Assembly: GCF_003018255.1 (NCBI RefSeq)
Contig: NZ_CP027440.1
Source: Escherichia coli
Lineage (GTDB): Bacteria; Pseudomonadota; Gammaproteobacteria; Enterobacterales; Enterobacteriaceae
DNA length: 64,000 nucleotides
Strand: one strand, 5' to 3'
Shown here: piece by piece, positions 53,141-56,860 of the stretch
How the letters are laid out: each line of letters begins with the position of its first letter
Numbering within the stretch: the first letter of the stretch is position 1
Notes under the pieces: generated by a model
Told to the model about the DNA's origin: nothing
The model's input: only the letters and a program-made list of their open reading frames with translations
The model's database searches: none
Made by a program: the position numbers and the translations under genes

Positions 53141-53457
53141 CTGAATGCAGAATAGGTCAGACATTAATGTCTGGTTTATTCTGCATTTTTTATTGAATAT
53201 AGAATTTTATTCTGAATGTGTGATCTCGCTATTTTAGGATTAATTAAAAAAATAGAGAAATTGCTGTAAGTTGTGGGATTCAGCCGATTTATTATCAATT
53301 TAATCCTCTGTAATGGAGGATTTTATCGTTTCTTTTCACCTTTCCTCCTGTTTATTCTTATTACCCCGTGTTTATGTCTCAGGCTGCCAATTGCTTAAGC
53401 AAGATCGGACGGTTAATGTGTTTTACACATTTTTTCCGTCAAACAGTGAGGCAGGCC

Positions 53458-55184: not shown

Positions 55185-55676
55185 ATGCGCCGGATATTAT
55201 CAGTCTTACTCGAAAATGAATCAGGCGCGTTATCCCGCGTGATTGGCCTTTTTTCCCAGCGTGGCTACAACATTGAAAGCCTGACCGTTGCGCCAACCGA
55301 CGATCCAACATTATCGCGTATGACCATCCAGACCGTGGGCGATGAAAAAGTGCTTGAGCAAATCGAAAAGCAATTACACAAGCTGGTCGATGTCTTGCGC
55401 GTGAGCGAGTTGGGGCAGGGCGCGCACGTTGAGCGGGAAATCATGCTGGTGAAAATTCAGGCCAGCGGTTACGGGCGTGATGAAGTGAAACGTAATACGG
55501 AAATATTCCGTGGGCAAATTATCGATGTCACACCCTCGCTTTATACCGTTCAATTAGCAGGCACCAGCGATAAGCTTGATGCATTTTTAGCATCGATTCG
55601 CGATGTGGCGAAAATTGTGGAAGTTGCTCGCTCTGGTGTAGTCGGACTTTCGCGCGGCGATAAAATAATGCGTTGA
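55185..55676 (+). CDS. ilvH: acetolactate synthase III small (regulatory) subunit
   Basis: ORF 55155..55676; start taken at [33 protein letters not shown] (163 aa). Confidence 0.95.
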
Positions 55677-55687
55677 GAATGATCTCA

Positions 55688-55774
55688 ATGCGCAATTTGC
55701 AGCCCAACATGTCACGTTGGGCTTTTTTTGCGAAATCAGTGGGAACCTGGAATAAAAGCAGTTGCCGCAGTTAA
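55688..55774 (+). CDS. fruL: small ORF upstream of cra (28 aa, [28 protein letters not shown]); possibly the annotated leader peptide
   Basis: Short ORF read by hand (below the ORF-track cutoff); I recall a K-12 annotation fruL at this position but cannot verify it. Confidence 0.3.
55701..55729 (+). terminator. rho-independent terminator after ilvH (agcccaacatgtcacgttgggct plus T7)
   Basis: 8-bp stem (gcccaacg / cgttgggc) with 7 Ts read about 25 nt after the ilvH stop. Confidence 0.75.
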
Positions 55775-55855
55775 TTTTCTGCGCTTAGATGTTAATGAAT
55801 TTAACCCATACCAGTACAATGGCTATGGTTTTTACATTTTACGCAAGGGGCAATT

Positions 55856-56860
55856 GTGAAACTGGATGAAATCGCTCGGCTGGCGGGAGTGTCGCGGACC
55901 ACTGCAAGCTATGTTATTAACGGCAAAGCGAAGCAATACCGTGTGAGCGACAAAACCGTTGAAAAAGTCATGGCTGTGGTGCGTGAGCACAATTACCACC
56001 CGAACGCCGTGGCAGCTGGGCTTCGTGCTGGACGCACACGTTCTATTGGTCTTGTGATCCCCGATCTGGAGAACACCAGCTATACCCGCATCGCTAACTA
56101 TCTTGAACGCCAGGCGCGGCAAAGGGGTTATCAACTGCTGATTGCCTGCTCGGAAGATCAGCCCGACAACGAAATGCGTTGTATCGAGCATCTTTTACAG
56201 CGTCAGGTTGATGCCATTATTGTTTCGACGTCGTTGCCACCTGAGCATCCTTTTTATCAACGCTGGGCTAACGACCCGTTCCCGATTGTCGCGCTGGACC
56301 GCGCCCTCGATCGTGAACACTTCACCAGCGTGGTTGGTGCCGATCAGGATGATGCCGAAATGCTGGCGGAAGAGTTACGTAAGTTTCCCGCCGAGACGGT
56401 ACTTTATCTTGGCGCGCTGCCGGAGCTTTCTGTCAGCTTCCTGCGTGAACAAGGTTTCCGTACTGCCTGGAAAGATGATCCTCGCGAAGTGCATTTCCTT
56501 TATGCCAACAGCTATGAGCGGGAGGCGGCTGCCCAGTTATTCGAAAAATGGCTGGAAACGCATCCGATGCCGCAGGCACTGTTCACAACGTCGTTTGCGT
56601 TGTTGCAAGGGGTGATGGATGTCACGCTACGTCGTGACGGCAAACTGCCTTCTGACCTGGCAATTGCCACCTTTGGCGATAACGAACTGCTCGACTTCTT
56701 ACAGTGCCCGGTGCTGGCAGTGGCTCAACGTCACCGCGATGTCGCAGAGCGTGTGCTGGAGATTGTCCTGGCAAGCCTGGACGAACCGCGTAAGCCAAAA
56801 CCTGGTTTAACGCGCATTAAACGTAATCTCTATCGCCGCGGCGTGCTCAGCCGTAGCTAA
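55856..56860 (+). CDS. cra: catabolite repressor/activator (LacI family)
   Basis: 334-aa ORF, GTG start, [34 protein letters not shown]... Confidence 0.96.

Follow-up and report, generated by a model that had tools for sequence, protein, structure and literature searches.

The fruL reading frame between ilvH and cra of Escherichia coli as a probable chance frame over a terminator and conserved non-coding DNA

The 28-codon reading frame that follows ilvH in Escherichia coli, annotated as fruL or the 'fruR/shl operon leader peptide', is very probably a chance frame lying across two sets of non-coding signals, with ilvIH transcription terminating at a hairpin and U-run and cra making use of its own upstream signals; we hold this explanation with high confidence. 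RNA polymerase arriving from ilvIH would produce a GC-rich stem-loop followed by the U-run and terminate there, and the segment would begin as the ilvIH 3' UTR and continue as the control region that precedes cra. In that region, three short conserved blocks would most likely be promoter or regulator sites for cra, succeeded by the cra ribosome-binding site and its GTG start codon, and the reading frame would be a by-product of the terminator and of the conserved non-coding DNA that it happens to cross. Translation of the frame to any useful extent is probably absent. The window referred to below is the whole stretch of 64,000 nucleotides of E. coli DNA that was analysed, and its relevant features are collected in Table 1.

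Table 1. Features of the ilvH-cra region, in window positions; identity values refer to the majority base in the alignment of 79 species.
Feature	Position	Strand	Basis or remark
ilvH	55185-55676	+	RefSeq annotation and tblastn with IlvH
ilvH stop codon TGA	55674-55676	+	Sequence, RefSeq annotation, tblastn with IlvH
Escherichia-specific 9-bp hairpin, GCGUUGAGA-AUGA-UCUCAAUGC	55670-55691	+	MFE structure, dG -12.5 kcal/mol
28-codon ORF (fruL, 'fruR-shl operon leader peptide')	55688-55774	+	Judged most likely not a gene
Predicted ilvIH intrinsic terminator stem-loop, AGCCCAAC-ATGTCAC-GTTGGGCT	55701-55723	+	Scan, fold, conservation, covariation
Terminator T-run, 7 T in Escherichia, 8 or 9 in most other genera	55723-55729	+	Sequence; alignment columns
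Conserved non-coding block 1, ATAAAAGCAGTTGCCG, containing a -35-like TTGCCG	55752-55767		In the 3' third of the ORF; identity 0.91
Conserved non-coding block 2, TTTCTGCGCTTAGATGTTAA	55776-55795		Identity 0.91; TTAGAT 0.99
TTAACC	55801-55806		17 bp upstream of TATGGT (55824-55829); identity 0.71
Conserved block 3, GGCTATGGT, with TATGGT as a possible -10	55821-55829		Identity 0.86
cra ribosome-binding site AAGGGG and GTG start at 55856	55844-55858	+	0.95 conserved; anti-SD -6.8 kcal/mol

The reading frame, its name and its start signals

The genes are arranged in the order ilvI-ilvH-cra-mraZ, and the spacer between ilvH and cra is 179 nt long (55677-55855). A first-pass annotation had reported a 28-aa ORF starting 12 nt past the ilvH stop and spanning the stem-loop and T-run of an ilvH terminator. 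Its coordinates and translation were confirmed, the ATG at 55688 being the 12th base past the ilvH TGA, with 11 nt between, and the stop codon being the TAA at 55772-55774, and the terminator call is now backed by conservation and covariation. The frame is also open further 5', where ATG 55679, only 2 nt beyond the ilvH stop (UGAGAAUG), would give a product of 31 aa and TTG 55673 one of 33 aa. It sits in the ilvH 3' UTR, and the 'FF' of its 28-aa product is the terminator T-run, while the C-terminal third is conserved block 1.

The segment was matched by megablast in 5399 of 5426 complete E. coli genomes, and every RefSeq (PGAP) E. coli record among the matches listed has a CDS here under the name 'fruR/shl operon leader peptide' (WP_001303787.1), in line with the name fruL given in the first-pass annotation. 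The fruL entry is b0079, carries the UniRef name 'Putative fruR/shl operon leader peptide', and is identical to the ORF in sequence and position. In the protein collection, the cluster to which the ORF product belongs contains 35 near-identical variants from E. coli or Shigella only, and neither NCBIfam nor Pfam has a model matching the 28-aa peptide; the fruL name seems to propagate by near-exact protein matches, with no family definition behind it. In the curated record of K-12 MG1655 (NC_000913.3), ilvH (b0078) is followed directly by cra (b0080). A 14-aa protein, YabR (b4726), does have an entry in the same record, encoded on the minus strand in the interval from leuO to ilvI (85467-85511 in K-12, about 53295-53339 in the window); thus, very small genes have been accepted in this neighbourhood, and fruL has not. 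The name fruL, or 'fruR-shl operon leader peptide', dates from early sequence inspection and has since been dropped from the curated K-12 annotation.

In the searchable papers, fruL or b0079 is mentioned for E. coli a single time, in one microarray table, where fruL of O157:H7 (ECs0083) was down 2.06 log2 at stationary-phase entry (2007 O157:H7 microarray table). This signal is that of RNA from the ilvIH 3' end or from cra and not that of a peptide. The main texts of three small-protein and Ribo-seq surveys mention neither fruL nor ilvH nor cra. Taken as an annotation, fruL is already known, and the 'leader peptide' function contained in its name is unsupported by any feature tested. This is a matter of annotation hygiene, as the CDS is named across the RefSeq E. 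coli records listed with neither a family model nor a sign of coding selection, and pangenome, small-protein and leader-peptide surveys risk being misled if fruL is counted as a gene or if its name is taken as a mechanism for cra.

The length of the ORF is no more than chance gives. When the spacer was shuffled 5000 times with its dinucleotides preserved, an ATG ORF of at least 28 codons arose on the + strand in 22.7% of cases, and one of at least 31 codons in 17.2%; in the 64-kb window itself, 229 ATG ORFs of 28-59 codons are found on the two strands. As for translation start signals, the anti-SD duplex amounts to -2.7 kcal/mol at ATG 55688 and +0.6 kcal/mol at ATG 55679, compared with -6.6 kcal/mol for ilvH, -6.8 kcal/mol for cra, and a median of -2.4 kcal/mol for the 1041 ATGs of the window, and by these pairing energies no Shine-Dalgarno sequence was found at either ATG.

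A second short ORF of 26 aa, also on the + strand (55789-55869), begins in conserved block 2 (TTAGATGTTAA) and crosses the cra GTG in another frame. It is open in Escherichia, Salmonella, and most Citrobacter, is closed in Klebsiella by a stop at codon 3 (ATG TTA TAA), and is absent from Kluyvera. It has no Shine-Dalgarno sequence (+1.3 kcal/mol) and is probably another by-product of conserved non-coding DNA.

The ilvIH terminator and the hairpin over the ilvH stop codon

The hairpin and U-run are predicted to be the ordinary Rho-independent terminator of ilvIH, selected as a structure. The stem comprises 8 bp, five of them G-C pairs, around a 7-nt loop (dG -12.9 kcal/mol) and begins 25 nt past the ilvH stop, on the same strand (+) as this last gene of the operon. 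The fold of the surrounding 121 nt has a z of -3.6, and none of 200 shuffles folds equally well. In 74 of 79 species, the T-run is directly preceded by an uninterrupted stem of at least 6 bp, and RNAalifold recovered the 8-pair stem from an alignment of 20 sequences, with double compensatory changes at six of the eight pairs and hardly any pair broken; for instance, A-U is replaced by G-C at two adjacent stem positions, in 7 and 9 sequences. Across the 79 species, the mean identity to the majority base is 0.79 and 0.87 in the two arms, 0.36 in the loop, and 1.00 in the T-run, whose aligned columns are 100% conserved and whose length is 7, 8, or 9 nt in 16, 52, and 11 species, respectively. Transcription would be expected to end at 55729, give or take a few nucleotides.

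Variation at and around the terminator takes several forms. On 68 contigs, a TTT->TGT change at window position 55728, which corresponds to F14C at codon 14 of the ORF, interrupts the T-run (TTTTTGT) and, if real, should weaken ilvIH termination in those strains. In loci of Citrobacter and Kluyvera (L029, L030, L033, L037, L047, L056, and L059), insertions of 70-90 nt lie between the ilvH stop and the terminator; they carry REP-like palindromic units (GCCGGATG.../...CATCCGGC, GCCTGATAAG) and result in a spacer of about 250-264 nt. A weak terminator stem is seen in L029, L030, L033, and L037, as well as in L031, where there is no such insertion.

In Escherichia, another hairpin covers the end of ilvH. 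The ilvH UGA lies in its 5' arm, AUG 55679 in its loop, and AUG 55688 in its 3' arm. Its stem is identical in all six Escherichia loci, the sole change being one in the loop of L003. Outside Escherichia this hairpin is not alignable, and several other genera have unrelated small hairpins in its place.

Two readings other than a chance frame bear directly on these structures. A genuine leader peptide, as the name of fruL implies, would act by translation of the ORF over the 5' arm of the terminator hairpin, which would block the terminator and make read-through into cra, by transcripts of ilvIH or of an ilvH-internal promoter, dependent on translation. The overlap of the ORF with the terminator and the historical name agree with this reading. 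Nevertheless, we consider it extremely unlikely, as the ORF lacks a Shine-Dalgarno sequence and its candidate AUGs are held in the -12.5 kcal/mol hairpin, the 28-aa product contains no run of regulatory codons, and both the MFE and the centroid folds consist of two independent hairpins with no alternative pairing to the terminator 5' arm, of which manual inspection near the ORF likewise revealed no upstream complement.

The second reading makes the ORF irrelevant and supposes that a 3'UTR-derived sRNA of about 54 nt, from the stop codon to the terminator end, is released from the ilvIH mRNA. Two stable hairpins and a terminal U-run do resemble the 3' end of an Hfq-type sRNA, and the segment is well conserved within Escherichia. 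However, it matches no Rfam family (the best match, with E = 2, scores 15 bits where the gathering score is 50), any seed would have to come from the sequence 5' of the terminator, which is unconserved between genera (0.42), and no support was found in the literature searched; we consider this reading, too, extremely unlikely.

Fate of the frame and substitution pattern across species

One genome per species was searched with the Cra protein, which yielded 80 Enterobacteriaceae loci and an alignment of 79 species. In every locus that reaches that far, ilvH lies directly upstream of cra, with a spacer of 145-304 nt (79 species). The frame of the ORF was found in Escherichia only, where it is open in E. 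coli, E. albertii, and E. whittamii; in Escherichia sp. E1V33, a CAG->TAG change makes codon 5 a nonsense codon, and in Escherichia sp. MOD1-EC7003 the ATG at 55679 is lost. A homologous ORF is absent in Salmonella, Citrobacter, Enterobacter, Klebsiella, and others. Among the 74 non-Escherichia species, 51 have no ATG-ORF across the T-run, and in the other 23 an ORF passes over it in frame 0, 1, or 2, beginning and ending at unrelated sites. In ten Salmonella enterica loci, ATG is missing both from the terminator and from the sequence that precedes it, and no gene call has been made there; eight of these loci have a T-run of 8 nt and two have one of 9 nt. Such differences of 1-2 nt in T-run length would place a frameshift inside the supposed coding sequence.

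The first-pass annotation had left two alternatives, a non-coding artefact or a leader-type peptide coupled to termination, and had proposed conservation of the frame across relatives as a check. The frame is not conserved, owing to the nonsense codon of E1V33, the ATG loss of MOD1-EC7003, the missing homologues in other genera, and the T-run indels; these disruptions in close relatives support the artefact and not the leader peptide. A genuine leader peptide is also at odds with the absence of the ORF outside Escherichia, where the terminator, cra, and their spacing are nonetheless conserved, and with a nonsense mutation inside the genus.

As a separate observation, ilvH of Citrobacter koseri NCTC10786 (L020) matches in frame for residues 1-87 only and continues in another frame; in this assembly it appears to be frameshifted, through either a sequencing error or decay to a pseudogene.

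The pattern of substitution points in the same direction as the loss of the frame. At codon positions 1/2/3, the mean identity to the majority base over the 79 species is 0.93/0.98/0.57 in the last 30 codons of ilvH and 0.99/1.00/0.71 in the first 29 codons of cra, whereas in the ORF it is 0.69/0.73/0.68, and in its reliably aligned part, 3' of the T-run, 0.77/0.77/0.70. The ORF is thus without codon periodicity, unlike the flanking ilvH and cra. Between E. coli and E. albertii, E. whittamii, and E1V33 (L004-L006), the ORF codons show 4 synonymous and 9 non-synonymous changes, the nonsense change included, a count that sums three species and in which some differences are shared, hence not independent events; against E. 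albertii, the ratio of synonymous to non-synonymous changes is 37:1 in ilvH and 88:2 in cra. The other Escherichia species and other genera were used because variation in E. coli itself is too scant for a test of selection, a 141-nt segment being at least 99% identical in 5326 of 5399 E. coli genomes. Single-residue variants of the ORF occur in E. coli and Shigella, including radical ones (W21R, V18E, F14C, S17L, and R10G). The marks that purifying selection on the 28-aa peptide would be expected to leave, namely a bias by codon position, an excess of synonymous changes, and a frame that is kept, are not found in these comparisons.

The spacer is under some constraint within Escherichia all the same. 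The 24 nt from the ilvH stop to the terminator hairpin, which contain the candidate starts, are 0.42 conserved and essentially unalignable between genera; within Escherichia, this genus-specific stretch 5' of the terminator has 0-3 positions changed. The whole Escherichia spacer (55677-55855) diverges by 3.4-4.5% from that of E. coli, compared with 0.36-0.56 at synonymous sites of ilvH and cra, which makes it about 10 times as conserved as the flanking synonymous sites, including the part that is unalignable in other genera. Some constraint on the 5' part of the ORF in Escherichia is therefore not obviously explained by the terminator or by a promoter. Since it is not codon-shaped, it does not rescue the reading as a peptide; rather, it suggests that the stop-codon hairpin or the 3' UTR stretch may matter in Escherichia, for example for mRNA stability.

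Another reading is low-level translation confined to Escherichia, in which ribosomes that have completed ilvH would start again at AUG 55679 or 55688 (UGAGAAUG...AUG) and produce a young micro-peptide, or noise, of no conserved function. The 2-nt distance between stop (55674-55676) and start (55679) suits reinitiation, which is possible with no Shine-Dalgarno sequence, and the hairpin over the AUGs would already have been opened by a ribosome terminating at ilvH; three named species of the genus keep the frame open, and, in Escherichia, conservation of the 5' part of the spacer exceeds that of synonymous sites. Against this, most ilvIH transcripts should stop at the terminator inside codon 14 and leave a non-stop message, MOD1-EC7003 has lost one of the two AUGs and E1V33 carries a stop at codon 5, the codon changes are mainly non-synonymous and radical variants circulate in E. 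coli, and the ORF is missing from a curated K-12 annotation that does list the nearby 14-aa YabR. We judge such translation to be unlikely.

A more elaborate version, again restricted to Escherichia, is that ribosomes would reinitiate 2 nt past the ilvH UGA (UGAGAAUG), their translation reaching into the terminator 5' arm, with read-through into cra being tied to the coupling of translation and transcription. This we consider very unlikely; if true, it would explain the roughly tenfold conservation of the genus-specific 5' part of the spacer and would constitute a young, genus-specific link between the synthesis of branched-chain amino acids and Cra, the global regulator of carbon flux.

Conserved blocks upstream of cra and likeness to known systems

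Downstream of the terminator, the interpretation as a chance frame assigns the conserved DNA to cra, whose start codon is GTG in all loci. A spacer of exactly 17 bp and of variable sequence separates TTGCCG (55762-55767) from TTAGAT (55785-55790), both of them almost unchanged across the 79 species; the pair resembles a promoter or a bipartite protein-binding site for cra, but is a poor match to the sigma-70 -10 consensus. A scan for sigma-70 promoters on the + strand from 55400 to 56100 returned none above threshold, and neither of the two 17-bp pairs passes. The cra promoter to which the literature search led is an engineered pBAD-Cra construct and has no bearing on this region. No conserved RNA structure was found in 55730-55860, where alifold gives -1.4 kcal/mol over 71 distinct sequences. 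Blocks 1 and 2 also lack codon periodicity. With no conserved RNA fold and no Rfam family, the blocks look like DNA signals and are probably candidate cra promoter or regulator-binding sites. Their interpretation as a 5'-leader riboregulator was rejected on the lack of conserved RNA structure in the same interval, and comparison by eye showed no fit to the consensus of a Cra operator or of sigma-E, sigma-28, or sigma-54 sites.

In the transcription start site (TSS) table of Kim et al. 2012 (PMC3415461), a 2-read TSS within ilvH (K-12 87663, about 55491 in the window) is assigned to fruR (cra). It lies 365 nt upstream of the cra start codon and gives a very weak hint of an ilvH-internal promoter, whose transcripts would need to cross the terminator. 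Since no promoter passes the scan and the sole published TSS found is this 2-read one inside ilvH, the promoter role of the blocks is one that we infer. The same weak TSS could be cited in favour of the leader peptide set out above; the conserved blocks and ribosome-binding site that cra has of its own speak against it.

Two strains show rearrangements in this part of the region. In E. coli ECONIH5 (NZ_CP026202.1), the match ends at query base 378 (about 55777) beside an IS1634-like ISSpu7 transposase; an IS has entered the DNA that follows the terminator and precedes cra, where the cra control region is presumed to lie. In strain Yu5 (NZ_CP200247.1), the segment matches at two places in the record, at one of which only the second half of the 141 nt is matched.

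The analysis as a whole maps the elements of the ilvH-cra spacer that are under selection, namely the terminator and three short DNA blocks, the latter being the natural places to look when the transcription of cra is mapped. When set beside the attenuation leaders trpL, ilvL, ivbL, leuL, hisL, thrL, and pheL, the ORF is alike in being short, in adjoining or overlapping a terminator hairpin, and in lying upstream of the gene presumed to be regulated. Attenuation leaders, however, are located downstream of the operon's own promoter, have a ribosome-binding site, runs of cognate codons, and alternative antiterminator and terminator pairings, and are conserved across genera, and for the ORF neither the ribosome-binding site, nor the codon runs, the alternative pairings, or the conservation across genera was found. 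As to position, the ORF lies in the ilvH 3' UTR, with no + strand promoter-like site passing the scan in 55400-56100 and with the 2-read start inside ilvH as the one published TSS found.

The likeness to enterobacterial Rho-independent terminators at operon 3' ends is closer, as the ilvIH hairpin has the same GC-rich stem, here of 8 bp, with a 7-nt loop and a tract of 7-9 U, and nothing about it is unusual except the extra, Escherichia-specific hairpin over the ilvH stop, 5' of it. As for the ORF, it resembles the spurious short ORFs spread by homology-based annotation in being named with no family model behind it and in being confined to one genus. Unlike them, fruL has both a gene name of long standing and an entry in UniRef, and so looks better supported than is warranted.
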